Assembly: GCA_049315725.1 (NCBI GenBank)
Contig: JBMOJP010000005.1
Span: forward strand, 1-51,188
DNA length: 51,188 bases
Direction of reading: 5' to 3'
Source: Chthoniobacterales bacterium
GTDB taxonomy: Bacteria > Verrucomicrobiota > Verrucomicrobiia > Chthoniobacterales > JACTMZ01
This document shows positions 3 to 40,301 of this stretch, in pieces (position 1 is the stretch's first letter; each line of letters begins with the position of its first letter). Under the pieces are notes generated by a model. It saw nothing but the letters and a program-made list of their open reading frames with translations, had not been told where the DNA came from and ran no database searches. A program made the position numbers and the translations under genes.

Positions 3-539
3 ATCGTCAACTCGGTCGGCAAAATCGGACTGGCCGTGCGCGGCCTCTATGGCGAAGGCACCGAAGCCTTGGGCAACCTCTTCCAAGTTTCCAACCAGAC
101 CACCTTGGGCGAAACGGAGGAGGAAATCATCGACCGGCTGGGCAAGGTCATTGAGCAGGTCATCGAGCATGAGCAAAACGCGCGGCAGACCCTCCTCGAG
201 CGACGGGCCAACATGCTGCTCGACCAGATCGGCCGCGCCTACGGCATCCTCGGCCACGCCCGTTCCATCGCCTCCAAGGAAACGCTCAACCTTCTCTCCA
301 TTCTCAAACTCGGAGCCGATCTCGGGCTCTTCCCCGAACCGACCCAACTGGCGGTGGACGAACTTTTCATCACGACCCAGCCGGCGCACCTGCAACTCGG
401 GGCCCAGGAGGAAAAGTTGAGCCCCGAGGAACGCGACACCTTGCGCGCCGACTTGGTCCGTGCAAAAGTGAAAATTATCCCCGAGCCCAACATCGCCAAA
501 GTCGGCCCGGCGAAGAACGGCCGGAAAAAAGACCAATGA
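3..539 (+). CDS. mcsB: Protein arginine kinase McsB (5' partial, runs off the window)
   Basis: Frame open from position 3 (IVNSVGKIGLAVRGLYGEGTEALGNLFQVSNQTTLG...TQPAHLQ...RDTLRA), typical McsB C-terminal half; stop overlaps clpC start (ATGA). Confidence 0.9.
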   Translation: MVNSVGKIGLAVRGLYGEGTEALGNLFQVSNQTTLGETEEEIIDRLGKVIEQVIEHEQNARQTLLERRANMLLDQIGRAYGILGHARSIASKETLNLLSILKLGADLGLFPEPTQLAVDELFITTQPAHLQLGAQEEKLSPEERDTLRADLVRAKVKIIPEPNIAKVGPAKNGRKKDQ

Positions 540-18561: not shown

Positions 18562-19808
18562 AGCGCGCCTTCCTCGACAAGATCCTGGCCCGCCTCCGCC
18601 GGATCCAGCCGGAGGAAGTCGAGACGTTCTTCGTTGAGTTGGCCCGCGACAAGCGTTTCCTCGAGACCATTTTCAACGCGATCCACGAGGGCGTCATTGT
18701 CACCGACGTCGGCGGCACGGTGGTCTATCTCAACGACGCCGCCTGCCTGCTCTTTGGTCTCGACCCCGCCTCCGCCCTCGGTCGTCCCCTCGCGGAAAAA
18801 ATCAGCGGCCTGCGCTGGAAGGAACTGGCCCAAGGCCGCGAGATCGTGAGCCGGGACATCGAGGTTTTTCACCCGGCCCACCGCGTCCTCAATTTCTACG
18901 TCGTGCCGCTGATGAGCGAAGACGAGGAGGAAGGGGGGCCGCAGCAGCATGCTGGCTACGTCTTGATCATGCGCGACATCACGGAGCGCCAGCGCGCCAC
19001 CGAGGAAACGCTGGAAAGCGAACGCATGGCCGCCCTGCAGCTGCTCGCCGCCGGCGTGGCCCACGAAATCGGCAACCCGCTCAACTCCCTCACCATCCAC
19101 CTCCAGCTCCTCGAACGCCGCCTGCGCAAGCTGCCGGCGGACCAGCGCGGGGACCTGCTTCCGCCGCTCGCCATCGCCCGCGACGAAATCAAACGGCTGG
19201 ATACGATCGTAACCCAGTTTCTTCGGGCCATCCGCCCGGCTCCACTCGACCGGGTTCCACAGGACCTCAACTTGCTTGTGCGCGAGGCCGCAGAATTTCT
19301 CGGCCCCGAACTCAAGTCGCGCAATGTCCTGCTCGAGCTCGAACTCTCCCCGGGCCTCCCCGCTCTTGCTGTCGATCCAAACCAGCTCAAGCAGGCGTTT
19401 TTCAACATCATCAAGAACTCCAGCGAGGCCATGAAGCAGGGCGGCCTCTTGAAAATTCGCACCCTGGCCGAGGCGGGCCGGATCGATGTCAGCTTCACCG
19501 ACACCGGGGGCGGCATGAGCACGGAAGCCATGGCCCGGGTCTTCGAACCCTACTACACGACGAAGCGAACCGGCAGCGGGCTCGGCCTCATGATCACCCA
19601 GCGGATCGTCCGCGCCCATGGCGGCGAAGTCGTGATCGAGAGCACCCCCGGGCAGGGGCTTCGTCTGACCATCCGCCTGCCACGGCAGGACAGGCAGGTC
19701 CAGATGCTCCCGCCCCGTCCCCTGACCCTGCCGGCCCCGGCGAAAAAATCATCCCGCCGCACTCCCGATCAACCAGGCCGCGAAGGCGTAATAGGTGGGA
19801 ATGCCTAG
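18558..19808 (+). CDS. PAS-domain cytoplasmic sensor histidine kinase (NtrB-like architecture)
   Basis: PAS (IHEGVIVTD...YLNDAA...MRDITE), H-box AGVAHEIGNPL, N-box NIIKNS, DTGGGM, FEPYYTTK, GSGLGL; ATGA overlap with pepF stop. Confidence 0.9.
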   Translation: MKRAFLDKILARLRRIQPEEVETFFVELARDKRFLETIFNAIHEGVIVTDVGGTVVYLNDAACLLFGLDPASALGRPLAEKISGLRWKELAQGREIVSRDIEVFHPAHRVLNFYVVPLMSEDEEEGGPQQHAGYVLIMRDITERQRATEETLESERMAALQLLAAGVAHEIGNPLNSLTIHLQLLERRLRKLPADQRGDLLPPLAIARDEIKRLDTIVTQFLRAIRPAPLDRVPQDLNLLVREAAEFLGPELKSRNVLLELELSPGLPALAVDPNQLKQAFFNIIKNSSEAMKQGGLLKIRTLAEAGRIDVSFTDTGGGMSTEAMARVFEPYYTTKRTGSGLGLMITQRIVRAHGGEVVIESTPGQGLRLTIRLPRQDRQVQMLPPRPLTLPAPAKKSSRRTPDQPGREGVIGGNA

Positions 19809-22849: not shown

Positions 22850-24004
22850 GTGCGCATCATCGTCACCGGCCTGATCGGTCAATACGCGTTCGGCGGCGTC
22901 ACCTGGGACTACATCCAATACGCTCTGGGGTTTCGCGCCCTCGGGCACGACGTGTGGTATCTGGAGGATACGGGCGCCTGGGCTTACGACCCCGTGGCAC
23001 AGGAACCAAGCGCGGACTGCTCGCACAACGTGGCCTACCTTTCGAGGGTCATGAACGCCTTCGACATGGGCGACCGCTGGATCTACCGCAATGGAGCAGA
23101 TGGCACTTACCACGGTCCCGCTACGACGGCTGAAGCGGAGAAGCTGATCGCCGAGGCCGACATTCTGGTCAATGTCTCCGGCGCGGCCTGGCTGACCGAC
23201 GCCACGGCGGCGATTCGCCGCAAGTTGTTTTTGGATGGCGACCCGATGTTCACCCACATCGGGTTGGTCACGCATGGCGGAACGGAGGAGCGGATCCGCA
23301 TGCATGACCGGCATTTTTCTTTCGGGCTCAACATCGGAAGCCCCGGCTGCCTGGTTCCCACCGGCGGGTTGACCTGGCATCCCACCGTCCAGCCGATCGC
23401 GCTCGAGCATTGGGATCCACAGGCTGAAGCCCCCCTGGCCGTCTCGCGCGGCGCCTGGAGCACGGTCATGAACTGGTCCAGCTACAAACCAAAGGAGTTC
23501 GACGGAGAGACCTACGGTCAGAAGGACGAGGAGTTCCTGAAGTTCGTTCTTCTGCCGGAGAAAACCCGCGAGTCTTTCGTGCTGGCCATGGGCCATGGCG
23601 TGGGGAAAAGCCGCCCCACGGACATGCTGGAGTCCCATGGCTGGAGCATCGTCGAGCCGGACATTCATCTCCCCGATTACCTGACCTATCGGGATTTCCT
23701 TGCCGGTTCGAAAGCCGAGTGGAGCATCGCCAAAAACGGCTATGTCAAATCCCGCAGCGGTTGGTTTAGTTGCCGCAGCGCCTGCTATCTGGCCCTCGGC
23801 AAACCGGTTGTCGTGCAAGACACCGGATGGAGCGACTCCCTGCCCTCGGGCGATGGGGTGCTCGCCTTCTCCGATCTCGAGGGTGCCACCCGGGCCGTGG
23901 CCGACGTGGCGGCGAACTATGCGCATCACAAAAAGGCCGCGCGCGCCTATGCGGAAAAGCATTTTGACGCCCGAGCCGTCTGCGCGGATCTGCTCGAGCA
24001 TTAG
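22850..24004 (+). CDS. Glycosyltransferase-like protein (GT-B fold)
   Basis: GTG start; GGVTWDYIQYALGFRALGHDVWYLED; SGWFSCRSACYLALGKPVVVQDTG; C-terminal AEKHFDARAV. Confidence 0.8.
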   Translation: MRIIVTGLIGQYAFGGVTWDYIQYALGFRALGHDVWYLEDTGAWAYDPVAQEPSADCSHNVAYLSRVMNAFDMGDRWIYRNGADGTYHGPATTAEAEKLIAEADILVNVSGAAWLTDATAAIRRKLFLDGDPMFTHIGLVTHGGTEERIRMHDRHFSFGLNIGSPGCLVPTGGLTWHPTVQPIALEHWDPQAEAPLAVSRGAWSTVMNWSSYKPKEFDGETYGQKDEEFLKFVLLPEKTRESFVLAMGHGVGKSRPTDMLESHGWSIVEPDIHLPDYLTYRDFLAGSKAEWSIAKNGYVKSRSGWFSCRSACYLALGKPVVVQDTGWSDSLPSGDGVLAFSDLEGATRAVADVAANYAHHKKAARAYAEKHFDARAVCADLLEH

Positions 24005-24174: not shown

Positions 24175-24247
24175 TGGAGGTAAGGGGAGTCGAACCCCTG
24201 ACCTTCTCATTGCGAACGAGACGCTCTACCAACTGAGCTATACCCCC
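24175..24247 (-). tRNA. tRNA-Ala (anticodon CGC)
   Basis: GGGGGTATAGCTCAGTTGGTAGAGCGTCTCGTTCGCAATGAGAAGGTCAGGGGTTCGACTCCCCTTACCTCCA: full cloverleaf, G3:U70 Ala identity pair, CCA not encoded. Confidence 0.97.
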
Positions 24248-24603: not shown

Positions 24604-24679
24604 TTCAAGGTAGCCCTGTGGGCAGAGCAGAGGGCTGGAAATCCTCGTGGCGGGGGTTCGATTCCCTCTCTGGCGACCT
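24604..24679 (+). pseudogene. Decayed tRNA (tRNA-Phe-like scaffold, anticodon reads GGA)
   Basis: TA-GCCC-TGTGGGCA-GAGC-A-GAGGG-CTGGAAA-TCCTC-GTGGC-GGGGG-TTCGATT-CCCTC-TCTGGCG-A-CCT has exact tRNA spacing but broken acceptor and D stems. Confidence 0.7.
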
Positions 24680-25078: not shown

Positions 25079-26443
25079 ATGCATCCAAAAATTCTCACCG
25101 TTGACGACAGCAAGACGATCCGGATGTTACTGGCGCGCCTCTTTGGGAAGTATCAATGCCAAGTCTTCGAGGCGGCTGATGGCTCCGAGGGGCTCTCCGT
25201 GGCTGTGCGGGAGAAGCCGGACCTCATTATCATCGACTACAACATGCCTGTCATGGACGGCATTACCATGCTGCGGAAGTTGCGGGAGGAAGCGGAGTTT
25301 AAAAAGACCGAGGTGATTATGCTCACTGGTGACACCAGCACACAGATCTTGGCCAGCGTGGCCCGTCTCGGGGTGCGTGACTGCGTGACCAAGCCATTCA
25401 ATGAGGATGAGTTGGTGGCCAAGGCGTTGCGCGTGGTAAAGTTAGAGCCTCGTAATGTGGAAAAAAGCCACGATACGTCCACGATTCAATCGTTGCTGGA
25501 AAAACTCCATGCACGCTACAAGGGTGTCAACGATGGCGAGTTGGCCAGCTACATCCCGGAATTGACCAAGGCCAACCCGGACCACTTCGGCATCTGTCTG
25601 GCCTCAGTGGAAGGCACCATGTTCCAAGCGGGCGACTGCAATGTGGAGTTCACGATCCAGTCCGTCTCCAAAGCGCTGGTCTACGCCCGAGCGCTCACCA
25701 TGCACGGCCGGGACAAGGTCACCCAGCGCGTCGGAATCGAACCGAGCGGCGATACCTTCAACTCCATCAATCTCGACAAGCAAAACCGAGCCTTCAACCC
25801 CATGGTCAATGCCGGCGCGATCACCGCGACCGGGTTGATCGAGGGTGCCTCGCTCGCGGAGCGGCGGGAAAACCTCCTCAAGACTTTCAGCAAGGCTGCG
25901 GGGAGGGAGCTCAAGATTGACGAGCGCGTCTACAAGTCCGAGAGCCTGACAGGGCACCGCAACCGGGCCCTGGTCTGGTTGCTGACGAATTTCGGGCAGG
26001 TCGACGAGGCAGCGACCTTGGACACGCTTGAACTCTACTACATGCAGTGCTCGATCCTGGTGACCGCGCGCGATCTGGCCATTATGGGCGCCACCCTGGC
26101 CAACACGGGGATGAATCCGTTCACCGGCGAGAGTATCTTCGATGTGCACTGCGTGCAGGACACGCTTTCCGTCATGTTCACTTGCGGTATGTATGACTAT
26201 TCGGGCGAATGGGCCTTCCGCGTCGGCATTCCCGCCAAGAGCGGAGTCGGCGGTGGCATCATGGGAGTGGTCAACCGTCAGCTGGGCATCGGCATCTATT
26301 CGCCGCCGCTGGACGACCGCGGGAACAGCGTGCGGGGCATTTTGGCCTGCAGTCATCTTTCGGAGGAGCTAGGCCTGCACGCCTTCAACTTCATGAACGA
26401 CGGGTCCACCTACCTTCGCTCCATGATGGTCGGTGACTCATGA
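25079..26443 (+). CDS. glsA: Response-regulator receiver domain fused to glutaminase (GlsA family)
   Basis: aa 1-122 REC (VDD, D53-YNMP, T83, KPF); aa about 135-454 glutaminase: YIPELTK, FTIQSVSK (catalytic SxxK), EPSG..FN, NPMVNAGAI, CGMYDYSG, PAKSGVGG, SPPLD.RGNS. Confidence 0.93.
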   Translation: MHPKILTVDDSKTIRMLLARLFGKYQCQVFEAADGSEGLSVAVREKPDLIIIDYNMPVMDGITMLRKLREEAEFKKTEVIMLTGDTSTQILASVARLGVRDCVTKPFNEDELVAKALRVVKLEPRNVEKSHDTSTIQSLLEKLHARYKGVNDGELASYIPELTKANPDHFGICLASVEGTMFQAGDCNVEFTIQSVSKALVYARALTMHGRDKVTQRVGIEPSGDTFNSINLDKQNRAFNPMVNAGAITATGLIEGASLAERRENLLKTFSKAAGRELKIDERVYKSESLTGHRNRALVWLLTNFGQVDEAATLDTLELYYMQCSILVTARDLAIMGATLANTGMNPFTGESIFDVHCVQDTLSVMFTCGMYDYSGEWAFRVGIPAKSGVGGGIMGVVNRQLGIGIYSPPLDDRGNSVRGILACSHLSEELGLHAFNFMNDGSTYLRSMMVGDS

Positions 26444-26586
26444 TTTGAGGCTGCCTCGAGGGGGAGATCGGTCATGACATGGTCCAACCGGAATGGTTGA
26501 GGTCTCGCCCAAGGGTCCGACCCGCGCAAGCCTGCGGCCACCCTCAACTCGATCTTTGCCGACCGGCCTAATCAGGCTGCGCCGCC

Positions 26587-27825
26587 CTAGGCGAAGTGGA
26601 TTCGGATCAGCGAAAAATCATCGTCGAGCGGACCGGGGCCGTTGAACCCGTGCAGCCAATCGAGGAGGCGGCGGAAAACATCGGGCGCGGTGGCGTTGGC
26701 CTGCATGAAGTTTCTGAACTCCGCGAACCCGAGCATCTTGCCGTCCGGCTTGGCCACCTCGTAAGTGCCGTCGCACAAGACGAAGAGACGCGAACCGGGA
26801 GGAATCTCGCGCGAGGCTGAGGCGTAGGGGAGGTTCTCCAGGTAGCCGATCATCAGGCCCGACTTGTTGAGGTCCTCGATCTCGCCGCCCGGCAGAACGA
26901 GAAGCGCGGGGGGATGGCCACCGCTGGCGTGGCGCAACATGCGGGTCGGGGTGTGGTAGACGCCATACCAGATGGTGAAATACATGTCGTTGTTCCGCTC
27001 CATGGGGAAGGCGGAGTTGAGGGCCTGAAGCACTGCGCCGGGATCACGAAAATCGACGCCGGGCAACGCGCCGGACCTGATCGCATTGATCGCGCTGACC
27101 GAGAGCAGGGCTGCGCCCACCCCGTGACCGCAGACGTCGAGCAGATAGATGGCGAAATGCTCGTCATCGATCCAGTGGTAGCCGAAGGAGTCGCCGGCCA
27201 GTTCGGTGGACGGCTCGTAGTGCCAGTCGATCGCATACGGCTTTTGCGTGGGCTCCGGCAGGATGCTGCGGACATACATGGCCGCATCATCGAGTTCCTT
27301 GGCCAGGCGCTTCTGCGTCCGCTCGAGCAATTCCTTTTCCTCCTGCAGCTGGATGAAGCGCAGGCGATCAAGGTCGCGCAGCCGTTTCTTTTCGATGGAG
27401 GAGGTGACTCTTGCGCGCAGTAGCGTCGGGTTGAAAGGCTTCGGCAGGTAATCCTCGGCGCCGGCCTCGATGCACTGCACCGCATTTTCGAGTTGTTCGG
27501 CCCCGGAAACAACGATGACGGGAAGACCGCTCAGCTCCGGACTCGATTTGATGGTCTGCAGCACCTCCATGCCGTTCATCTCCGGCATCTCCATGTCGAG
27601 CAACATCAGGTCGAAGGACTTCTCCTTGATCAAGCCCACCGCCTGGCGCCCGTCGGCCGCCTCGGTGATCTTTTTGAACCCCAGCTCATGCAGTGATCTG
27701 ATCAAAATCATCCGCATCGTCCGGCTGTCATCGACGACGAGCACCTCCGATTCCTCGAGGGGCTTGATGGTGAGTTCAGCTAGCGACGAGGAAATCGGCA
27801 TTGTTGTTTCTTGTTGATTACTCAT
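26587..27825 (-). CDS. Receiver-PP2C/SpoIIE serine phosphatase (RsbU-like)
   Basis: REC (VDDSRTMR, LDMEMP, KPF), coiled coil, then LAGDSFG, DVCGHGVGAAL, CDG and DDDFSL PP2C motifs. Confidence 0.92.
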   Translation of the reverse strand: MSNQQETTMPISSSLAELTIKPLEESEVLVVDDSRTMRMILIRSLHELGFKKITEAADGRQAVGLIKEKSFDLMLLDMEMPEMNGMEVLQTIKSSPELSGLPVIVVSGAEQLENAVQCIEAGAEDYLPKPFNPTLLRARVTSSIEKKRLRDLDRLRFIQLQEEKELLERTQKRLAKELDDAAMYVRSILPEPTQKPYAIDWHYEPSTELAGDSFGYHWIDDEHFAIYLLDVCGHGVGAALLSVSAINAIRSGALPGVDFRDPGAVLQALNSAFPMERNNDMYFTIWYGVYHTPTRMLRHASGGHPPALLVLPGGEIEDLNKSGLMIGYLENLPYASASREIPPGSRLFVLCDGTYEVAKPDGKMLGFAEFRNFMQANATAPDVFRRLLDWLHGFNGPGPLDDDFSLIRIHFA

Positions 27826-27842
27826 GGTGTGTTCGCCGTGAT

Positions 27843-28247
27843 CTATGGCGTCGGGTCGTCAGTGGCCGCTCGGGGCATGAGCGGGAGGATTTTGTTGATT
27901 TTCCCCAGGAGCGCTTGCTCCTCGAAGGGCTTCACGATGTAGTCCCGTGCTCCCAGACGCGCAACGGCGGAGATGATCGCGCGGCCCGACTCGGCGGTGA
28001 GCATGATGACCGGCGTCGCTTTGAGGGCCGCGTCCTCGCGCAGGCGGGAGAGCATGGTCAGCCCGTCCATCACCGGCATGTTGTAATCGAGGATGATGAG
28101 TTGCGGCCCTTTCTCCGCGGCGACGGCCAAGCCTTCCGCGCCGTTGGATGCCTCGCAGACCTCGACGGCAAAGGGTCGCAGGATGCGTGCAAGGAGCAGT
28201 CGTATCGTCTTGCTGTCATCGACGGTGAGAATGGTCGGATCGCTCAT
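27843..28247 (-). CDS. cheY: CheY-like single-domain response regulator
   Basis: 134 aa stand-alone REC (ILTVDDSKTIR, DYNMPVMDG, MLTAE, KPF) within the che operon; ATGA-coupled to cheX. Confidence 0.88.
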   Translation of the reverse strand: MSDPTILTVDDSKTIRLLLARILRPFAVEVCEASNGAEGLAVAAEKGPQLIILDYNMPVMDGLTMLSRLREDAALKATPVIMLTAESGRAIISAVARLGARDYIVKPFEEQALLGKINKILPLMPRAATDDPTP

Positions 28248-28729
28248 GGTGAGGGAAAAAGCGCGATGTCCAAGGTCAAAGGATGTCCCCCGCAAGTCCA
28301 GTCCGTTCGGCAATGCTCCCCCTGCGAAGCAAAGGCTTGCTCGGGTCGGTGCGAGCGCACCACCGGAGTCTGGAGAAGGCCGGCAAAACCCTGTTGCGAT
28401 AGTTCGGAGGACAAACGACCGGCGACCATATTGCAAAGCTCGGCGGCGACATCGGCCAGTTCCTCGGGGGACGATTCGCCGGGTTGTCGTCCGAAAAGTT
28501 GCGCGGCCGCCTCGGCTGCGAAATCCAAAGGCATGGCCAGCGCGAACACGCCGTGCCACGATGGCCCCGACCATGGCACGGAGAAGCAGAGTCTTTCATC
28601 TGCGGCGCCACTCGGTTCGGTGAGGGTGGAGCACGGGGATACGCTGCGGTTCAGTTGGGTGGAAAACACCGTCTCGAGCGAGCGGCCTGCGAGGGAGGGA
28701 AGGTTGTGAGGTTTGGTGGGCGCGCTCAT
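28244..28729 (-). CDS. cheX: CheX-like CheY-P phosphatase
   Basis: W(S)GPSWHG...LADVAAELCNMVAG (ExxN motif)...LQTPVV; between cheB and cheY. Confidence 0.8.
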   Translation of the reverse strand: MSAPTKPHNLPSLAGRSLETVFSTQLNRSVSPCSTLTEPSGAADERLCFSVPWSGPSWHGVFALAMPLDFAAEAAAQLFGRQPGESSPEELADVAAELCNMVAGRLSSELSQQGFAGLLQTPVVRSHRPEQAFASQGEHCRTDWTCGGHPLTLDIALFPSP

Positions 28730-29790
28730 TTTTTTGATCCATCGTGGAGGCATTGCATGATGGCGGCCGGCATGTTGGAGAGCGTGACCACCCGGTCGAC
28801 CGCGTTGAGTTTGATGGCCGCTTGGGGCATCCCGTAGACCACGCAGCTGTCCTCATGCTCAGCCAGCGTGCTGGCTCCTGCCATGTGGAGGGCGAGCATG
28901 CCGCGGGCCCCGTCGACCCCCATGCCGGTGAGCAGCACACCGGTGGCATGATTTCCGGCGCAGTCGGCACCGGAGCGGAAAAGCACATCGACGGCGGGAC
29001 GGCAGTGGTGGAGGGGGGGCGACTGAGTAAGGCGCACCTTGTAGCCCAGCCCTGAATGCTGCAGCGCAAGGTGGTAATCGCCGGGCGCGACGAGACAAAG
29101 CCCCGGACGCAACTGCTGCCCTTGCTGGGCCTCGCAGACATCGTAGGGACAGAGCTCATGCAAGCGCTCGGCCATGAGCCGGGAGAAGTTGGGCGGGATG
29201 TGCTGCACAATGACAATGGGCGGTAGGCCGGCCGGGAGTCGGGGAAGAATGCTGCGGAGCGCCTCCACTCCGCCAGTCGAGGCTCCGATGAGGAGAATTT
29301 GCCGGGAGGAAAATCCGCCGGGCGGCGGGCTGCTGAACCGGGATTTTGCCTCGGGCGTGCCAGCGGCGGACTGCGGCACACTCCGCTTGGCCCGCGCTGC
29401 GGCTTTGACATAAAAGGCGAGGCGGTGCGACAACTCGCCCAGGCCGAGTTTGCCGTCGGGCTTGGCCAGCACATCGACCGCGCCGAGGGCAAGTGCCTCC
29501 ATGGCCTTGGCGGAACCGGTTTGAGTCAGCGAGCTGATGACCACGACGGGGAGCGGATGGTGCTCCATGAGAATTTTCAGAAACGTGAGGCCGTCCATGC
29601 GCGGCATCTCCAAGTCCAGCGTGATGACGTCCGGCTGCAGCTCGAGAATTTTTTCCCGAGCCTCATAGGGGTCGGCAGCGAGCCCGCACACCTCGAGTCC
29701 GGGATCGCGGGAAATCGCATCGGAGATGGCGCGGCGGGCGAGAGCCGAATCGTCGACGACGAGCACGCGGATTTTTTTCCCGATGATCAT
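28726..29790 (-). CDS. cheB: Chemotaxis methylesterase CheB
   Basis: REC plus IGASTGG, VQHIP, RPAVDVLF, LTGMGVDGA, VVYGMP. Confidence 0.95.
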   Translation of the reverse strand: MIIGKKIRVLVVDDSALARRAISDAISRDPGLEVCGLAADPYEAREKILELQPDVITLDLEMPRMDGLTFLKILMEHHPLPVVVISSLTQTGSAKAMEALALGAVDVLAKPDGKLGLGELSHRLAFYVKAAARAKRSVPQSAAGTPEAKSRFSSPPPGGFSSRQILLIGASTGGVEALRSILPRLPAGLPPIVIVQHIPPNFSRLMAERLHELCPYDVCEAQQGQQLRPGLCLVAPGDYHLALQHSGLGYKVRLTQSPPLHHCRPAVDVLFRSGADCAGNHATGVLLTGMGVDGARGMLALHMAGASTLAEHEDSCVVYGMPQAAIKLNAVDRVVTLSNMPAAIMQCLHDGSKK

Positions 29791-30620
29791 GGCAGCCGAT
29801 AGACCCCTTGCTGCACAGGCTCGAGGCTGTGTTTGATGCCGAACAGGCTTTCCGAATGGCCGACGATCAAATAGCCGCCGGGCGCGAGTTGCCTGGTCAG
29901 GCGCTGGATGAGCGTGGCGCGCGAGGGCGGGTCGAAGTAGATCATCACATTGCGGCAAAAGATGACGTGCTGCGAGGCGGGCACGGGGCAGTGGGGTTGA
30001 AAAAGATTGAAGCGCTCGAAGGCGATGCGCTCGCGCAACTCCGCCTTCACCCGACAGGATCCCTCGCGTGCACCGACGCCACGTTGAAAATAGCGTTTGA
30101 GGAGATCGGGTGGAACGGCTGAGGCGGTGTCGCTGCGGTAAATACCTTCGCGGGCACGCGTGAGCATGCGTCGCGAAATATCCGTGGCATGAATCCGCCA
30201 ATCGACCGAGGGGAAGGCGCGCAGAAACTCGGCGAGGACGATCCCCAGGGTGTAAGGTTCCTCGCCGGAGGAGCAGGCGGCTGACCAGATGTGGAGCGTG
30301 GCGGGTGTGGTCCGCACGAGCTGGGGCAGGACTTGCCTGGCGAGGAAGTTGAAGTGCTCGGGCTCCCGGAAAAATTTCGTGTGGTTGGTCGAGATGAGGT
30401 CGACGAGGTGGTCGATCTCCTCTCCGCCCGCGGGTGAACGCAGCAAGTCGCAGTATTCCCGGTAAGAGGCGAACTGCAGCGTGCGCAGGCGGCTGCGCAG
30501 GCGGTTGGAGAGCAGGGCATGCTTGTCCTCTCCCAAGTTGATGCGGCTGTGCTCGTAGACCAACTCGACGACGTAGCGGTAGGCGTCCTCGTCAAGGACA
30601 GGCTCGGCAGACCATTCCAT
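29787..30620 (-). CDS. cheR: Chemotaxis methyltransferase CheR
   Basis: TNHTKFFRE, IWSAACSSGEEPYT, ATDIS, IFCRNVMIYFD, GHSESL. Confidence 0.95.
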   Translation of the reverse strand: MEWSAEPVLDEDAYRYVVELVYEHSRINLGEDKHALLSNRLRSRLRTLQFASYREYCDLLRSPAGGEEIDHLVDLISTNHTKFFREPEHFNFLARQVLPQLVRTTPATLHIWSAACSSGEEPYTLGIVLAEFLRAFPSVDWRIHATDISRRMLTRAREGIYRSDTASAVPPDLLKRYFQRGVGAREGSCRVKAELRERIAFERFNLFQPHCPVPASQHVIFCRNVMIYFDPPSRATLIQRLTRQLAPGGYLIVGHSESLFGIKHSLEPVQQGVYRLP

Positions 30621-30652
30621 ATGCACGTCAGGGAGTCCCCGAGGGCTGGGAC

Positions 30653-32206
30653 TTAAAAGTTGCGGAAGTCGCTGTCCTCATCCCGGACGTTGTTGTCCTC
30701 CGGCATGGGAATGCCCGAGCGGCGCGTTTCGCGTGAGGGAGCGGAGGATTCAATTCGGCCATGGCCTTGGTCCTCTTTTTTGCCTCCGACAAAGCGACGG
30801 AGTCTCGCCACCATCTCCTGCATGGAGCGCGCCTGGGCGGAAAGCTCCTCCGCCGCGCTGGCGGTCTCCTCGGCGCTGGCCGCGTTGCTCTGGGTGACTT
30901 TTTCCATCTGGGTCATCGCGCTGTTGATCTGCTCGATGCCCAGCGACTGTTCACGCGCGGCATTGGCAATGTCTCCCACGAGGGAATCTGTCGCGCTGAC
31001 CGATCCGGCGATTTTCTGCAGGGAGTCGGCGACCTTCGCCGAGTTGGTCGAGCCGGTGCGGCTGTTCTCGATGGCCATGGCGATCTTCGCAGCGGTTTCC
31101 TTGGCCGCGGCCGCGCTGCGTTGCGCCAGCGAGCGCACTTCGTCAGCCACCACGGCGAAACCCGCGCCCGCTTCCCCGGCCCGCGCGGCTTCCACCGCGG
31201 CGTTCAGGGCGAGGATGTTGGTCTGGAAGGCGATTTCGTCGATGTCTTTGACAATTTTCGCCACTTCCGCACTCGAAGAGTCGATCGACTTCATCGCATC
31301 GCTCATCTCTCCCATGTTGACCGCGCCGGCGCTGGCCGCCGCGTGCGATTCGCCCGCGAGGGTCTTGGCCTTCTGCGCGTTCTCCGACGTCGAGCGGATC
31401 ATGCTGGTCATCTCCTCGAGCGAGGCGCTGGTTTCCTCGACAGAGGAGGCTTGTTCGCTGGCGCCGGACGACAGACTCTGGCTGGCCACGGAGACCTGGC
31501 GGGAGGCAGCCGCAGTCTGCAGTGCCCCGTGGTCGAGGCTGTTGGCCAGGCCTCGCAGCAAGCGGTTGGTCGTGCCTGAGATGAGCCACGCGAGCAAAGC
31601 AGTCAGCACCAAAGCGCCGACGAGGGTCAACCGGACGGCACGCAGACCGTGCTCGGCGATCGACTTCGCTTTGCTGGCCTCGGTTTGTCCCAACCGCACA
31701 TTGAATTCCAAGTGGCTGTCGATGGCCTGAATGAGCTTTTCGTAGGCCGACAGGGTCTCCTCCTTCCGCCTCTGGGTCTCCGATGGCTGGTTAGCGGCGA
31801 TCGCAGTGATCAACCGGTCCCTCGCTTGCATGAAAGTCGCGTGGTTCTTTCTTATTTCACCCAACAACCGGCTGTCCTCGTCGCTGATCACCATGGGGTC
31901 ATACTTTTTCGCGCCCTCCTCGATCCGGCGGCTTTGCTCGTCCGTTTCTTTTTGTAGTTCCCTGACCCGATCCGCCGACATCTCTGCATCAATCTGTTCC
32001 ACCGCGATCATCGTGTTGCGTGCCGCATTGGAGATGTTGCCGAGAATAACCAGGCTGGGAACGACGTTATCATTCAGCTCGGTGATGTTTTGCATCAGTG
32101 CCTCCATTTGCTTGAGGGCGAAAATTCCCAGGCCTGCGGTGATGAGGAGTCCGATGGCGAAGCCGGCGATGATGCGGCGAGATATGGTCCAGAAGTTGGA
32201 TTTCAT
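30653..32206 (-). CDS. Methyl-accepting chemotaxis protein (4-helix-bundle-type sensor), C-terminal DFRNF pentapeptide
   Basis: Two TM helices, helical periplasmic domain, [37 protein letters not shown] tip. Confidence 0.95.
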
Positions 32207-32245: not shown

Positions 32246-32797
32246 TTAGTTTTGGAGGGTGGCTTGCCCGTTCGGGCGTCGGAAGGCGCCGGGGGGCACG
32301 ATGTCGGCTGCGGTGAGCGTGATGGTGCCCTCTTCCTGAAAGATTTTTTCCGTCTCCAGCAGCGTCTTGACCCCGCCTTGGATGGTGGCGACGCCGCGGA
32401 TGTAGCGGGTGGAGGAGGAGGCGCCGAAGTCCGGGCAAGGTTCGATCTGCGAGACCGCGAGTTGGACCACCTCCTCCACGGCATCGACGATGACGCCGAT
32501 GAGGGTGGGGCGACCGGAGGAGGAGCCGAGTTGCAGGACGATGATGCAGGCCCGCTCGCCATATTCAGCCGGGGCCATGGAGAATTTGGCACGCAGGTCG
32601 AGGACGGGAATGACCGTGCCGCGCAGATTGATGACCCCGCGCACGTGCGGGGGCATGTTGGGCACCGGGGTGATCTGGCAAAGGCGGATGATCTCGCGCA
32701 CGTGGAGCACAGGCAGTCCGTAAGACTCCGCTCCCAAGGTGAAGGTAAGATACCGCGCGGGCTTGGCCTCGGTCACGACCGTCGGAGAGTGGCTCAT
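32246..32797 (-). CDS. cheW: Chemotaxis coupling protein CheW (copy 2)
   Basis: YLTFTLG.E.YGL, VREII, ITPVP, GVINLRGTVIPVLDLR, IGVIVDAVEEV. Confidence 0.95.
   Translation of the reverse strand: MSHSPTVVTEAKPARYLTFTLGAESYGLPVLHVREIIRLCQITPVPNMPPHVRGVINLRGTVIPVLDLRAKFSMAPAEYGERACIIVLQLGSSSGRPTLIGVIVDAVEEVVQLAVSQIEPCPDFGASSSTRYIRGVATIQGGVKTLLETEKIFQEEGTITLTAADIVPPGAFRRPNGQATLQN
32300..32787. repeat. 488-bp direct repeat, copy A (cheW core)
   Basis: Identical to 34553-35040 except one base (32330 C versus 34583 T) by manual comparison. Confidence 0.95.
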
Positions 32798-32798
32798 G

Positions 32799-34448
32799 TT
32801 AGAAGTTCCGGAAGTCCGAGTCGTGCTCGTCGGCGGGCATGGGGATGGCGCGTGCCATCTGCCCGGATTTTGTTTTGGTCCGCGGTGCCTCAAGGGGGCG
32901 ATAATCCTGCCGTGTTGTCTCGTTTTGACCTCCGACCAGCCGTTGCAGTTGGCCGACGAGATCCTGCAGGGTCTCGGCTTGCGCCGAGAGTTCCTCGGCC
33001 GCACTCGCGCTTTCCTCGGCGCTGGAGGCGTTGCTTTGCGTAACCCCCTCCATCTGGGCGATGGCCGTATTGATCTGGCCGATCCCCTGGGATTGTTCGT
33101 GCGAAGCATTGGCGATATCGCCGACCAGATCATCCGTCGAGGTAATCTTCTCGGCGATTCGCTTGAGTGCCTCCTCGACGCGGGCCGAGCGCTCCATGCC
33201 ATGGCGGCAACTCTCCAGACCTTCGCGGCTGCTGGCCAGATCGGCATCGATCTTGATCGCGGTTTCCTTCGCCGCGGCCGCGCTGCGCTGCGCAAGAGAG
33301 CGCACTTCGTCGGCGACGACGGCAAACCCCGCGCCAGCCTCGCCAGCTCGGGCGGCTTCCACCGCGGCATTCAAGGCAAGGATGTTGGTCTGGAAAGCGA
33401 TTTCATCGATGTCCTTGACGATCTTGGACACTTCCGCGCTCGAGGAGGCGATGGCGTTCATTGCGCGATTCATCGACTGCATGGTCGTCGTCATTTCCGC
33501 CACGGCTTGCGAGCCTTGACCGGCGACCGAGCAGGATTCCAAAGCGAGAGTTTTGGCTTTCTGGGCATTATCCGCAGTCGCTCGGATCATGCTCGTCATT
33601 TCCTCGAGGGAGGCGCTGGTTTCTTCGACGGATGCGGCTTGCTCGCTGGCTGCGGAGGAGAGCGTCTGGCTCGCCATGGCGACCTGGCGCGCAGCCGACG
33701 AAGTCTGCACCGAGCCCTGCTGAAGATTGGCCGCGATGTCGCGCAGCACATGGTTGGTCGAGCGCGAGATGGCGATCGCGAGCCAGACAGCCAAGGCGAG
33801 TCCGACCACCAACGCGACGCAGACGAAGATGATGGCGTTCCGCGCGGTGACTCGCCCGTCCGCGCCATCCCGGTTGGCCTGGTCGATGCTTTCTCGGAGC
33901 ATCACATCAACCGCATCCATGTAGCGGTCGAAGTCCGGTTGGACGCTTTCCTGAATCATGGTGAAGAGAGCCTGCCTGCCCTGTTCGGCTCCACCCGCTG
34001 CATTCGGTGCAGGGGCTGTCTGCAGCATCTCATGATAGCGGTGCACTTTTTCGACAAACGCGTCAGAGCTGACGGTATAAGCTTTGCGCGCGAGAAGAGT
34101 AGCTTCGAGCAGCCTCCTCTCTTCAGGTTGCAGGTGAGCGTTTTCCTGTTTGGCCAGTAGCTCTGTCACCTTGGAGCGTTGGCTTTTTATGCCGGCCTCC
34201 AACCCGGGGATCGCTTCCGGCGGCGCCTCCATGAGTTGTATGACTCCCATGAGCGCGCCGCGGGCCGAGTTGGAGATATCTCCATAGGTGACAACCTGCG
34301 GGAGCGATTCGTCCACCACAGCATGCAGGTCTTGTCTCACGTGAAAAATCCGCTCCAGAGAGAAGCCGCCGACCAGCATGAGGATGGAGACGAGGATGAT
34401 AAATCCGGTGTTCACTCTCCTCGAGATAGTCCAGTGGTGCATATTCAT
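32799..34448 (-). CDS. Methyl-accepting chemotaxis protein (4-helix-bundle-type sensor), C-terminal DFRNF pentapeptide
   Basis: MNMHHWTISRR start after an AC-rich leader; two TM helices; conserved signalling tip; one extra heptad in each cytoplasmic arm. Confidence 0.95.
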   Translation of the reverse strand: MNMHHWTISRRVNTGFIILVSILMLVGGFSLERIFHVRQDLHAVVDESLPQVVTYGDISNSARGALMGVIQLMEAPPEAIPGLEAGIKSQRSKVTELLAKQENAHLQPEERRLLEATLLARKAYTVSSDAFVEKVHRYHEMLQTAPAPNAAGGAEQGRQALFTMIQESVQPDFDRYMDAVDVMLRESIDQANRDGADGRVTARNAIIFVCVALVVGLALAVWLAIAISRSTNHVLRDIAANLQQGSVQTSSAARQVAMASQTLSSAASEQAASVEETSASLEEMTSMIRATADNAQKAKTLALESCSVAGQGSQAVAEMTTTMQSMNRAMNAIASSSAEVSKIVKDIDEIAFQTNILALNAAVEAARAGEAGAGFAVVADEVRSLAQRSAAAAKETAIKIDADLASSREGLESCRHGMERSARVEEALKRIAEKITSTDDLVGDIANASHEQSQGIGQINTAIAQMEGVTQSNASSAEESASAAEELSAQAETLQDLVGQLQRLVGGQNETTRQDYRPLEAPRTKTKSGQMARAIPMPADEHDSDFRNF

Positions 34449-34507
34449 ATTTGTTTGATGATTGATCGTTGGTGGTGGTGATTGTGGGTCGGGTATTGTC
34501 GCGTGAA

Positions 34508-35068
34508 TCAGGAGCGGTCCCCGAGAATGCGCGGCTGAGCATCGGGCGGAATGATGTCGGCTGCGGTGAGCGTGATGGTGCCTTCTTCCTGAAAGATTTT
34601 TTCCGTCTCCAGCAGCGTCTTGACCCCGCCTTGGATGGTGGCGACGCCGCGGATGTAGCGGGTGGAGGAGGAGGCGCCGAAGTCCGGGCAAGGTTCGATC
34701 TGCGAGACCGCGAGTTGGACCACCTCCTCCACGGCATCGACGATGACGCCGATGAGGGTGGGGCGACCGGAGGAGGAGCCGAGTTGCAGGACGATGATGC
34801 AGGCCCGCTCGCCATATTCAGCCGGGGCCATGGAGAATTTGGCACGCAGGTCGAGGACGGGAATGACCGTGCCGCGCAGATTGATGACCCCGCGCACGTG
34901 CGGGGGCATGTTGGGCACCGGGGTGATCTGGCAAAGGCGGATGATCTCGCGCACGTGGAGCACAGGCAGTCCGTAAGACTCCGCTCCCAAGGTGAAGGTA
35001 AGATACCGCGCGGGCTTGGCCTCGGTCACGACCGTCGGAGGGTGGAACGTTGCGCGTGGGGTGTTCAC
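34508..35068 (-). CDS. cheW: Chemotaxis coupling protein CheW (copy 1)
   Basis: Same core as copy 2; GTG start overlaps cheA stop. Confidence 0.95.
   Translation of the reverse strand: MNTPRATFHPPTVVTEAKPARYLTFTLGAESYGLPVLHVREIIRLCQITPVPNMPPHVRGVINLRGTVIPVLDLRAKFSMAPAEYGERACIIVLQLGSSSGRPTLIGVIVDAVEEVVQLAVSQIEPCPDFGASSSTRYIRGVATIQGGVKTLLETEKIFQEEGTITLTAADIIPPDAQPRILGDRS
34553..35040. repeat. 488-bp direct repeat, copy B (cheW core)
   Basis: Offset 2253 bp from copy A; 487/488 identical. Confidence 0.95.
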
Positions 35069-37317
35069 GTGGCTTGGCGGGCGTGTTTGGCGGGCGTTCC
35101 ATGGCCGCGATCAGAAAAGCGCACGAGGCTGTCCACATCGAAGATTAGTCCGACTGAGCCGTCCCCCAGCACCGCCGCCCCGGCGAGCAAGTGCTGGTTT
35201 TGAAATGATTGGCCCAAGCTCTTGATGACGACTTCCTGCTTGCCGATCAGTTCGTCGACCAGGAGGGCCCGGCAGGAGTCGCCGGACTCGACGACGACCA
35301 TGATGCCATCCTCCGGTTTGACCGCGCGGCTCGGGCGTCCCAGATAGGGGCCCAGGCGCAACACGGGAGTCTGGCGACCGCGAACGCTGACCACTTCACC
35401 GTGCTCTTGAATGGTGGAGACCATGCCGGGCCTGGCCCGGAAGGATTCGCGCACCGAGAGGGTGGGGATGATGTAGCGGTCGTCGCCAACGCCGACGAGA
35501 AGGCCGTCGATGATGGCCAAAGTGAGAGGAAGAATAATGGTGAAGGTCGTGCCCTCGCCGGGAACCGAGTCGATTTCGATTTTGCCGCGCAGGTTTTCGA
35601 TGTTGCGGCGCACTACGTCCATCCCTACCCCGCGTCCGGAGAGATCGGTCACTTTTTCGGCGGTGGAAAATCCCGGCATAAAGATCATCTCGTAGATCCG
35701 GGACGTGTCCGGCTCCTCGTCCGGCCCGATGAGGCCTCGCTCGCGGGCCTTGGCCAGAATGCGGGAGGCGTCGAGGCCTCGGCCGTCGTCGCGGATACGG
35801 ATGCAGATGCCGCCTCGCTGGTGGGACGCGCTCAGCATGATGGTGCCGAGGGAAAGCTTACCTGCCGCCATGCGCTCGGCAGGGCCTTCGAGGCCGTGGT
35901 CCACCGAGTTCCGCACCATGTGGACGAGAGGGTCGGAGAGTTTTTCCACGATGTTGCGGTCTAGCTCAGTATCCTCTCCCTCGAGCAGAAGTTGGATTTG
36001 CTTCTGCTGCTGGGCAGCCAGATCGCGCACGAGGCGCGACATTTTTTGGAAGACGCCGCGCACCGGAACCATGCGCAGGGACATGGCGTTGCGCTGGAGT
36101 TCGGCGGTGGTCCGACTCAGCTGGCGCAGGCAGCGATCAAGGGTCCGGCTGGTCAGGTTTTGCACTTCCGGATTTTGCACCACCATCGATTGGGCGATCA
36201 CCAACTCGCCGACCAGGTCCACGAGGTGGTCGAGCTTGAGCGTGTCTAATTTGACGAAGCCCGAGGAGGTCTCGGTGGTGGCAGGACCGGCTGACGTCGC
36301 CGGGGCGGAGGCTGCTCTTTTCGCCAGGGGCTGCGCCGCGCGCGAAGCCAGAGTCTTGCTGGAGGGCTTTTCCTCCTCGGCCGGCGGATCGATCTCGGGC
36401 GGTTCTTCGGACTGGTCGGCAGGGGAAGGGGTGAAGACTGGAGAGGGTTCAGGCGCGGCGGGAGGCAACTCCCCGCGCAGGGCCGCCTGCAGCCTTTGCA
36501 TGAGGGCGCTCGTGGGGACGACGATGGGTGAACCGGCCCCAGTTCCGTTGAGCTGCGCGCCGATCTCGCGGGTGAAGTGCTTGAGGGCGTCGGCTCCGGA
36601 CAAAATAAGATCAACGATAGGCGAGCTAATCGAAAGTTCACCGCGCCGTGCCGCGGCCAGCAGGGATTCCAGATCATGGGCCACATCCTGCATCGCGCCG
36701 AGGTGCAGGAAGCCTGCCCCGCCTTTGAATGTGTGGAAGGCTCGGAAAATGGAGTTGATCGTGTCGGCGTCCGTCGGGTTGCCCTCGAGGACAATGAGTC
36801 CCTCCTCAATGCTCTGCAGCAGCTCAACCGATTCACCATGGAATTCGCGGAGGAGTTCGCTGTCATCCTGCAAATTCAGCGTGATCGACTTTTCCTCGAC
36901 GCCGGGTGCCGCTTGGATGGTGCTGGCTGCGACTGACGGCGCTGGCGCCGGCGGCGGTGCGGTGGTGGCAGCTTCTCCCCATAGGGCCGGGGCAGCAGGC
37001 ATCGCTTCTCCGTGCTGCCAAGCGTCAATGACCCGCAACATCCACGGATGCCATGCGTTGAGGTTGGCGATAGTTTCCTCGGAGAATTTTGCCGAACCGT
37101 CCAGAGTGAGATCAATCCACTGCCGTGCGTCGCGCAAACCCGCGCTCAGTTGCGCCGGATCATCGGGCTGCGCGGCATCCTCCATGTCCATGAGGCAGCG
37201 GTTGATGGCAAGCAGACCTGTGTCTTCCCCCGGAATGGCGAATGCCAACTCCTCGCTCAACTGTTCAAGCAACTGGCTGATTTTTTCCGTTTGGCTGGCG
37301 ATCGCGGTCCTCTCCAT
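35065..37317 (-). CDS. cheA: Chemotaxis histidine kinase CheA
   Basis: Hpt FRAFHTFKGGAGF, dimerisation KLDHLVDLVGELVI, HMVRNSVDHG, DDGRG, PGFSTAEKVTDLSGRGVGMDVV, PLTLAI, C-terminal CheW-like P5. Confidence 0.96.
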   Translation of the reverse strand: MERTAIASQTEKISQLLEQLSEELAFAIPGEDTGLLAINRCLMDMEDAAQPDDPAQLSAGLRDARQWIDLTLDGSAKFSEETIANLNAWHPWMLRVIDAWQHGEAMPAAPALWGEAATTAPPPAPAPSVAASTIQAAPGVEEKSITLNLQDDSELLREFHGESVELLQSIEEGLIVLEGNPTDADTINSIFRAFHTFKGGAGFLHLGAMQDVAHDLESLLAAARRGELSISSPIVDLILSGADALKHFTREIGAQLNGTGAGSPIVVPTSALMQRLQAALRGELPPAAPEPSPVFTPSPADQSEEPPEIDPPAEEEKPSSKTLASRAAQPLAKRAASAPATSAGPATTETSSGFVKLDTLKLDHLVDLVGELVIAQSMVVQNPEVQNLTSRTLDRCLRQLSRTTAELQRNAMSLRMVPVRGVFQKMSRLVRDLAAQQQKQIQLLLEGEDTELDRNIVEKLSDPLVHMVRNSVDHGLEGPAERMAAGKLSLGTIMLSASHQRGGICIRIRDDGRGLDASRILAKARERGLIGPDEEPDTSRIYEMIFMPGFSTAEKVTDLSGRGVGMDVVRRNIENLRGKIEIDSVPGEGTTFTIILPLTLAIIDGLLVGVGDDRYIIPTLSVRESFRARPGMVSTIQEHGEVVSVRGRQTPVLRLGPYLGRPSRAVKPEDGIMVVVESGDSCRALLVDELIGKQEVVIKSLGQSFQNQHLLAGAAVLGDGSVGLIFDVDSLVRFSDRGHGTPAKHARQAT

Positions 37318-37531
37318 GTTCAAAGCTAGTGCAACGTAGCGGTGGAGGTGTGCATGAGTCGACAGGAAAGGCATCCCCTGCCGGAACAGTCCCTCACGAG
37401 GTCGCCTAGAGGGGCGACTTTTCTCCGGGTGCACCCTCGCGCGTCATGGGCGCGACTTTGTCGCCGTTATGATGCTTGGGATCCAAGGGACTCGTCGGCG
37501 GGGCTTCCGGCTCGGCGGTCCTGCGGACCGT

Positions 37532-37921
37532 CTATCTCCCTTCGGTCGGTTCCATCTCCCCGCGCGCGAAGTAGGTCTGGTCGTAAATGTTCTGCTCCTG
37601 GCCCTCCAAGCTGGTGAGGATGAAACGCGGGTTGGCCCCCACCACCGCAGCAGCCGCCATCGTAGCCGTGAAATGCACCCGGTCGTCGGTGGCGTCGAAG
37701 TCCAAGATCAGCTCGCTCGGAGCTTCTTTGAAACTTTGGATGAACAACTCCAAGAGCACCTTCGACATGGCCAAAGCTGTCGGCCAATCGGCACGTTGCT
37801 CCAAGCGGCACAACGTCGAGCTGCCAGCCGGTTCCTCACTGCGCTCCACCGCACTCTGCCACAGCAGGTCCACTGCGGCACTTCGCTAATTTTTGCTCCC
37901 TGCGTGAAACATCCGGGTTAG
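37532..37921 (-). mobile_element. IS1380-family transposase remnant
   Basis: AGSSTLCRLE...ELILDFDATDDRVH joined to NPRFILTSL...Y.ARGEME (central DDE region deleted); candidate end CCCGGATGTTTCAC at 37917-37904 next to TTAG. Confidence 0.8.
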
Positions 37922-40201: not shown

Positions 40202-40284
40202 TATGTGTGTGTGGGTTGGGTTGGTTGTTTTGCGAAGGCGCCATTGTGGGGATCGGGAACCGCCATCGCGAGAAAACAGTATAA

Positions 40285-40301
40285 AGCACAAATCATGCCA
40301 A
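40285..40301 (-). promoter_or_regulatory. Sigma-54 (-24/-12) promoter of glnA
   Basis: Minus strand TTGGCATGATTTGTGCT: GG-N10-GC, about 85 nt upstream of the GSIII ATG. Confidence 0.72.

Follow-up and report, generated by a model that had tools for sequence, protein, structure and literature searches.

A receiver-glutaminase fusion facing a chemosensory operon in a Chthoniobacterales bacterium: a candidate enzyme-type response regulator

What would a phosphorylation receiver be doing on a glutaminase, and why should the gene for that enzyme face a chemosensory operon? The question is raised by a 51,188-nt stretch of DNA (the window), which is positions 1 to 51,188 of contig JBMOJP010000005.1, assembly GCA_049315725.1, from a Chthoniobacterales bacterium (2.67 Mb in 213 contigs, 96.6% complete; G000 below). 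An open reading frame (ORF) of 454 amino acids at 25079-26443 (+) encodes both a Response_reg domain (residues 5-115) and a Glutaminase domain (PF04960, residues 153-436). The reading slightly favoured here is that its product is a rare enzyme-type response regulator which would be fed by the histidine kinase CheA, through a phosphotransfer that we infer from sequence, and which would switch glutamine hydrolysis.

The first of the two domains matches Pfam PF00072 at E 3.3e-27, with 95.3 bits against a curated cut-off of 30.2, and the second takes in profile positions 1-286 of PF04960, its full length, at E 3e-113 and 378 bits. The receiver (REC) part runs over residues 1-122 (25079..25444, +), and the catalytic part, with an intact Ser-x-x-Lys motif (QSVSK), over 25481..26443 (+). 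The linker between them, residues ~120-134 (25436..25480, +), shows itself in two ways, as a drop in pLDDT, the per-residue confidence measure of the AlphaFold2 (AF2) model, and as the region, at about residue 130, where the start of stand-alone orthologues aligns. That model (pLDDT 87.2, pTM 0.73) has two well-folded domains, a canonical (beta-alpha)5 receiver from b1 at 4-8 to a5 at 109-119 and a glutaminase fold, joined by a low-confidence stretch at 120-134 in which pLDDT falls below 50 at 128-131. The catalytic domain matches Protein Data Bank (PDB) entry 3agd (E 9.5e-77), and QSVSK aligns with the motif of that structure and of human GLS chains; Q69, S70 and K73 of the glutaminase are invariant across 61 relatives. 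Like GlsA/YbaS (1u60), YbgJ (1mki) and the Micrococcus salt-tolerant glutaminase (3agd), the fusion aligns over some 300 residues, at E 1e-61 to 1e-77, and keeps the Ser-x-x-Lys; unlike the solved glutaminases it has something ahead of the enzyme, as among the 29 listed chains none aligns to it before residue 132. It is the sole intact glutaminase found in G000. A second glutaminase is there as a remnant only, at G000:C166:11597-11959 (L099:1468-1662 and upstream), where the first 106 profile positions are matched with a TAG interruption; the remnant shares 47% identity with the catalytic domain of the fusion, and beside it is an ORF which, by eye, is pyridoxine-phosphate-synthase-like.

How rare is such a protein, and could it be a product of misassembly? 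When 8000 glutaminase relatives were scored, four of the best 120 carried both domains: P0001 (91% identity), P0002 (80%), P0003 (77%) and a fragment, P0006. Among 61 related genomes the fusion is in G000 and G021 only, and a scan of one genome for each of 185,579 species gave 80 kept glutaminase loci, one of which matches residues 1-454 (L018, which is G021, again titled "Chthoniobacterales bacterium"). It is also on four metagenome contigs (L108-L111), 84 proteins make up its 90% cluster and one of these recurs unchanged on 166 contigs; the fusion is real and not an assembly artefact. Databases give these proteins no name beyond "glutaminase" or "glutaminase A", with "CheY-like chemotaxis protein" used for fragments, and a full-text search, in which subscription journals were thinly covered, found no literature on a receiver-glutaminase architecture or on regulation of a glutaminase in this way. 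Three long glutaminases that also rank high (P0005, P0008 and P0013, 626-702 amino acids) each have two glutaminase Pfam stretches; they had been candidates for STAS fusions and were rejected as such, their glutaminase domains being in tandem.

Is the nearness to che genes an accident of one genome? The fusion gene (+) lies tail to tail with a che operon (-), 143 bp from the gene for a phosphatase of the PP2C type that itself carries a receiver (receiver-PP2C). The wording of the original prediction needs a correction here: the glutaminase gene is on the opposite strand, convergent, and is a neighbour of the operon rather than a member. Some receiver-less glutaminases (P0021-P0034) reach 72-74% identity. 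The closest ones with genomic context, at 65-67% identity, are from five loci, L019 (record title Verrucomicrobia subdivision 6), L020 (an "Aliarcobacter" metagenome-assembled genome), L021 (Methylacidiphilales) and the metagenome contigs L173 and L185. In all five the glutaminase is convergent to an orthologous che cluster, the proteins of which resemble those of the window at 77-79% (receiver-PP2C), 73-75% (CheB), 68-70% (CheR), 70-84% (CheA) and 67-69% (CheY), and L173 and L185 additionally have, close by, a homologue (56%) of the glycosyltransferase that the window encodes at 22850-24004. In trees of the catalytic domain the fusions and these che-linked glutaminases are sister groups, with support of 95 in a quick 52-row tree (starred, as support at or above the threshold is called below) and 91/94 in a careful 35-row tree. 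On this phylogenetic evidence the link of glutaminase and che cluster is older than the fusion, and as the glutaminase is already che-linked in receiver-less orthologues, it would have been to a che-linked glutaminase that a cheY-family receiver was added. The association reaches further, che genes being present at seven of the 80 glutaminase loci and across phyla. In L031 (Terriglobia) che genes, receiver-PP2C, STAS and glutaminase are all co-directional; in L036 and L047 (Burkholderiales-type) the order is RsbW-like kinase, STAS, a GPP34-family gene, glutaminase, two more genes and then CheA through CheY, and L042 is similar.

Does the receiver look able to receive? When eight distinct fusion receivers are set against 129 CheY-family rows, 55 columns prove to be conserved and identical in both, including D9, D10, D53, T83, K105 and D-Y-N-M-P. 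Those five single residues, D9, D10 and D53 forming the acidic pocket, presumably have the roles of their counterparts in Escherichia coli CheY; all are kept in eight of eight fusion receivers, as in the CheY-family consensus. Helix alpha1 (residues 12-22) is off that consensus at one of its 11 positions, and the D-Y-N-M-P after Asp53 is retained. Ten columns are fixed differently in the fusion receivers: L16M in alpha1; R23G, P24K and F25Y in the alpha1-beta2 loop; E36S at the start of alpha2; L52I in beta3; R76K in the alpha3-beta4 loop; A84G, next to the conserved Thr, and S86T in the beta4-alpha4 loop; and Y102C in beta5, three residues before the conserved Lys. Position 102, which we take to be the site of the aromatic switch residue Tyr106 of E. 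coli CheY, is Tyr in 129 of 129 CheY-family rows and Cys in eight of eight fusion receivers, while among 12 receivers of G000 itself nine have Tyr or Phe at the equivalent place, two (CheB being one of them) have Val, and the fusion alone has Cys. Phospho-acceptor site and alpha1 are thus kept, and the changes cluster at what is, by homology, the signal-transmitting face. In short the domain is like the single-domain CheY of the cluster type in being 52-70% identical to it, with the same acidic pocket, D-Y-N-M-P and near-consensus alpha1, and unlike it in being fused to an enzyme and in its ten lineage-specific substitutions, Y102C and A84G among them. Might it then be a structural or dimerisation domain with no phosphorylation signalling at all? 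The occurrence of Y102C in all eight would suit such a role, but the retention of D9, D10, D53, T83 and K105 in the same eight does not, nor does the CheB of G000, which is non-aromatic (Val) at the switch position as well; CheB-type receivers are phosphorylated. We consider a purely structural role very improbable.

From where did the receiver come? The original prediction held it to be a close paralogue of the operon's CheY that aligns with it without gaps at about 55% identity, and proposed that cheY had been duplicated and fused onto glsA. The alignment itself is confirmed: BLASTP of the receiver (25079-25444) with CheY (27843-28247) gives 67/120 identities (56%), 90/120 positives and no gaps at E 1e-49, and the shared blocks that had been named are visible in it. 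That the similarity is also visible in the DNA holds weakly, with 61% nucleotide identity but 44% at third codon positions; the 67 identical residues include 32 identical codons, and the longest exact run is 14 nt. Judged by codons, the duplication is an old one, with nothing to suggest gene conversion. The two are mutual best matches among the 14 receiver matches in G000, the next-best by score being 35.7% (40/112) for the fusion receiver and 37.6% (44/117) for CheY, and as no other receiver of G000 exceeds 38.6%, the genome does not hold receivers of equal similarity, a finding that could have gone against the proposed kinship. The closest receiver pair in G000 is a different one, C68:3691-4026 and C138:5376-5708, at 75.6% over 119 residues.

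The picture changes when CheYs of other genomes are brought in. A CheY search gave 1613 proteins at E <= 0.001, and the best 120, all stand-alone, 127-219 amino acids long and 64-97% identical to the local CheY, were compared: 109 of them resemble the fusion receiver more than the local CheY does (52.5-70.5% identity over the 120, median 64.8%). An exhaustive HMMER search with the fusion receiver led to the same CheY family, with stand-alone matches at 54-64%, and a protein atlas look-up yielded generic receiver clusters alone (score 0.84). At 454 amino acids with its glutaminase domain, the fusion itself is well outside the size of a stand-alone CheY (~128-140). "Close paralogue" is accordingly too strong a term; by sequence similarity the two are members of the same single-domain CheY subfamily. 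Other proteins in which a CheY-type receiver is joined to neighbours are a CheY-receiver-adenylate cyclase (P0121, 608 amino acids) and a CheY-HDOD-CheX (P0224, 383 amino acids).

The trees agree with this. In one of 145 rows, six fusion receivers form a clade (99, starred) on a long stem within the CheY family, the family including them is split from the outgroup of 10 other receivers of G000 (98, starred), and the local CheY is in a 30-row clade that is free of fusion receivers (96, starred). In a careful tree of 54 rows the fusion receivers (100/99, starred) stand beside CheYs that precede receiver-cyclases (90/78), the local CheY clade has 96/94 (starred) and the family is parted from the outgroup at 97/93 (starred). 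A third tree, to which CheYs of glutaminase-linked clusters were added, has the outgroup split at 95/93 (starred); the CheYs of L019, L021, L173 and L185 are in a clade sister to the genus CheYs in the 54-row tree (100/99, starred), and a starred split (96/85) parts the fusion receivers from them. The stem of the fusion receivers is 0.54-0.81 changes per column long in the 145-row and 54-row trees. Approximately unbiased (AU) tests leave two groupings unrejected, one that joins the fusion receivers to the whole clade of the local CheY (delta lnL, the log-likelihood difference, 4.6; p 0.237) and one that joins them to just the inner 10 rows of that clade (delta lnL 10.2, p 0.198). So the tree check bears out membership of the same CheY subfamily, apart from the other receivers of the genome, and does not give sisterhood with the local CheY, and of the proposed duplication what stands is that a cheY-family receiver was added to a che-linked glutaminase, not that it is a close or recent copy of the local cheY. 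With about 125 columns and so long a stem, the donor may have been either the local cheY or that of another lineage.

Two histories compete. In one, the operon's cheY was duplicated and fused to the adjoining glsA, the 56% identity reflecting fast divergence after fusion; we give this a little less than an even chance. Glutaminase and che cluster have long been adjacent and the fusion postdates the split from L021-type loci, the long stem could pull the row toward the base of the tree and the AU tests leave a clade with the local CheY unrejected, but the nearer foreign CheYs count against such a history, and so do all three maximum-likelihood trees, which place the receiver either next to CheYs that have a receiver-cyclase behind them or joined to them, or behind the starred 96/85 split. 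Also to be set against it is that third codon positions are near saturation and that neither cheX nor intergenic DNA has left a trace upstream of the fusion gene (tblastn found no remnant of a cheX or STAS gene around it). In the other history, the receiver came by recombination or transfer from a different CheY lineage, for instance the CheYs found before receiver-adenylate cyclases (P0121, P0133, P0320). The 54-row placement and the basal placement in the other two trees would fit, as would a che cluster that looks mobile (it is in four of 31 genus genomes and is flanked by a transposase fragment and tRNAs), that shares 70-84% identity with clusters whose records are titled as other verrucomicrobial orders and that in G021 has a receiver-cyclase as the gene after cheY. 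However, 90/78 is below the star threshold, the local alternative survives the AU test and long-branch attraction to the outgroup could be at work, and a foreign donor is perhaps best called possible, at clearly less than an even chance.

What of the operon that the fusion faces? All of its genes are on the minus strand, and they were identified by Pfam. CheA (35065..37434), with Hpt, dimerisation, HATPase_c and CheW-like domains, is followed by a CheW (34508..35068), a chemoreceptor (32799..34691, start codon uncertain), a second CheW (~32246..32800, start uncertain; Pfam CheW is at residues 207-346 of a 374-amino-acid ORF, 32246-33370), a further chemoreceptor with 4HB_MCP and MCPsignal (30653..32206), CheR methyltransferase (29787..30626), CheB with receiver and methylesterase (28726..29802, start codon uncertain), a CheX-type phosphatase (28244..28753; PF13690, E 4.7e-11), the single-domain CheY of 134 amino acids, Response_reg alone (27843..28247), and last the receiver-PP2C of the SpoIIE family (26587..27825), orthologues of which have the same position in the five loci. 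The gene after cheY is receiver-PP2C in G000 and G003 and receiver-adenylate cyclase in G021 (L015:1840-2982 (-)).

Which kinase, then, would phosphorylate the fusion? G000 has one CheA (PF02895 matches once) and eight HATPase_c matches, and FliG and FlhA had no match in it at its 96.6% completeness. Among 31 genomes of the genus an orthologous CheA is present in four (G000, G003, G010 and G021), and the fusion in two of these four and in none of the 27 without that CheA; G003 has the che cluster with receiver-PP2C and no glutaminase. The CheA orthologue of G003 (G003:C83:4646-6946 (-), 88%) has an in-frame TAG. Because there is a single CheA in G000 and the fusion is confined to genomes that hold it, control by the same CheA and CheX, as the original prediction had it, is plausible. 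CheA, 9 kb away in a non-flagellar chemosensory cluster, would pass a phosphoryl group to Asp53 of the fusion, as to CheY, CheB and receiver-PP2C; phosphorylation would change the beta4-alpha4/beta5 face of the receiver, site of the fusion substitutions A84G, S86T and Y102C, and the changed face may alter the activity of the glutaminase or its oligomeric state. Signals read by the two chemoreceptors would in this way set the rate of glutamine -> glutamate + ammonium, and CheX may reset the receiver.

Several observations weigh against this scheme. The fusion gene, convergent to the che operon, is not co-transcribed with it, and it is without a che neighbour in G021 (on a 6.5-kb contig) and in L110 (with 10 kb on each side), so that che linkage is not required. 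With loss of the aromatic switch residue, an output mechanism of the CheY type cannot be assumed. The cluster's other CheA substrates have quite different alpha1 helices, for which reason likeness in alpha1 says little about specificity, and none of the three trees makes the receiver sister to the local CheY. There is also an orphan PAS-HisKA-HATPase_c kinase at 18273-19808 (+), 5 kb upstream and with no response regulator gene beside it. Could it, or another of the proteins behind the eight HATPase_c matches, be the phosphodonor, adjacency to che being just inherited gene order? The unlinked fusions of G021 and L110 would then be easily accommodated, but a receiver that belongs to the CheY family and has an alpha1 close to consensus, that is found only in genomes with this CheA and whose glutaminase partner is che-linked again and again (the seven of 80 loci) makes a different kinase unlikely. 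Phosphorylation by CheA is still the reading that we prefer.

What was there before the fusion? In the five loci a STAS ORF of 105 amino acids (Pfam E 1.2e-15) is 3' of the glutaminase, on the same strand and before the receiver-PP2C; S51, the conserved Ser of this protein, does not vary across 12 STAS proteins linked to glutaminases. An orthologue of the STAS protein is missing from G000, where the nearest match is 32-43% identical as against 67-84% for other proteins of the cluster; there are 12 STAS matches elsewhere in that genome, none on contig C7. Because the relatives have a receiver-less glutaminase and a STAS protein facing receiver-PP2C, the fusion may have replaced an indirect relay, CheA to receiver-PP2C to STAS to glutaminase, in which the STAS protein would bind the enzyme, by a direct one. 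Not in favour of so simple a swap is the retention of receiver-PP2C in spite of the loss of the linked STAS; the word "replacement" may oversimplify.

Neighbours of partner-switching type are not peculiar to these loci. A STAS gene (21 loci), an RsbW-like kinase (13) or a PP2C (13) is within 3 kb of the glutaminase in 27 of 80 glutaminase loci from several phyla (L018-L097, in most of which the glutaminase is at about 10001-10950), and where at least 3 kb is available on both sides the figure is 20 of 53; the counts come from tblastn with few queries and are a lower bound, with a sample confirmed by Pfam. The fusion gene too has such a neighbour within 3 kb, receiver-PP2C, which ends 143 bp away. 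A natural protein even joins the two partners: a 449-amino-acid STAS-glutaminase at L050:9599-10948 (+), in a genome titled Opitutae, with STAS at 20-109 and glutaminase at 152-435. It is rare, one of 70 matches to its STAS region carrying a glutaminase domain, and the 23 members of its cluster (P0391) are named only "glutaminase" or "glutaminase A" in databases. The L050 protein and the fusion are alike in their N-terminal alpha/beta domain of ~110 residues, their linker and a glutaminase of the same catalytic family from residue 152 or 153, and differ in that L050 has a STAS domain in the receiver's place. A full-text search with the same thin coverage of subscription journals found no literature on control of a glutaminase by STAS proteins or partner switching. 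Tentatively, then, and with rather less than even confidence, GlsA-type glutaminases may be unrecognised relay targets, of partner-switching modules in many lineages, of a che cluster by way of receiver-PP2C in several, and here with the relay short-circuited by exchange of STAS for a receiver.

To what known systems can the fusion be likened? Enzyme-type response regulators are exemplified by CheB (receiver and methylesterase) and WspR/PleD (receiver and GGDEF), and for CheB and WspR the phosphodonor is the CheA-type kinase of a chemosensory cluster. Like them the fusion has an N-terminal receiver, a linker and a catalytic domain, and unlike them its output is a GlsA-type glutaminase, which acts on a central metabolite. 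For the relatives with STAS the counterparts are HsbR-HsbA-HsbD, BgrSTUWV-BgrR and SiaABC-SiaD, HsbR being a PP2C phosphatase with a receiver. The locus relatives likewise hold receiver-PP2C, STAS and an enzyme, the glutaminase, side by side. According to PMC8457831, in these systems a PP2C phosphatase sets the phosphorylation of a STAS-type protein that controls an enzyme, and the STAS-type protein binds and controls a diguanylate cyclase (HsbA-HsbD, BgrV-BgrR, SiaC-SiaD). Unlike the Hsb, Bgr and Sia systems, the known targets of which are diguanylate cyclases, the window has no STAS step, and the receiver is fused to a glutaminase.

The surroundings add a little. The block of glutaminase and che genes is flanked at one edge by a DDE transposase fragment (37532..37873, -; a partial match to PF13701, E 1.3e-20), which is at the upstream edge of the che cluster, and at the other, just upstream of the fusion gene, by tRNA-Ala (24175-24247, -) and tRNA-Ser (24604-24675, +), both found by ARAGORN and Rfam; Rfam gave nothing else over the window. 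Edge transposase fragment, tRNAs and patchy spread of the cluster suggest a mobile island. In the five relatives compared for an empty site, HisF, the glycosyltransferase at 22850 and the type III glutamine synthetase are in each case on separate contigs. That synthetase (38048-40291), upstream of CheA, had given rise to the idea of a glutamine-metabolism island, which was dropped: it is a genus core gene, 86-88% identical in five of five genomes, and in the L019-L021 genomes the che cluster has none beside it (best match 30%). In G007 (C17:5318-7519 (-)) the gene for it has an in-frame TGA. A scan for promoters and terminators around the fusion gene did no better than on shuffled sequence. 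Far from the fusion, window 36-3031 (+) has the 3' end of a McsB-like ATP:guanido phosphotransferase gene and directly after it one for a ClpC/ClpB-type AAA+ chaperone; the McsB-like/ClpC pairing is familiar from the protein-arginine phosphorylation systems of Firmicutes.

What would all this mean? Enzyme-output response regulators and non-flagellar chemosensory pathways are already known, and the outputs of such pathways known to us are second-messenger enzymes, methylesterases and transcription. The link of glutaminases to STAS/PP2C modules that is flagged here is widespread and unannotated. The window and its relatives provide a natural "before and after" pair, the same enzyme beside the same che cluster, with STAS and receiver-PP2C in one case and with a fused receiver in the other, and how such a partner-switching relay is wired, and what replaces it, can thereby be tested with a few purified proteins. 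A receiver-glutaminase fusion would put the conversion of glutamine to glutamate and ammonium under phosphorylation control in a bacterium that yielded no flagellar genes and, if the relay was short-circuited as suggested above, a step of central nitrogen metabolism would be gated directly by a chemoreceptor array.

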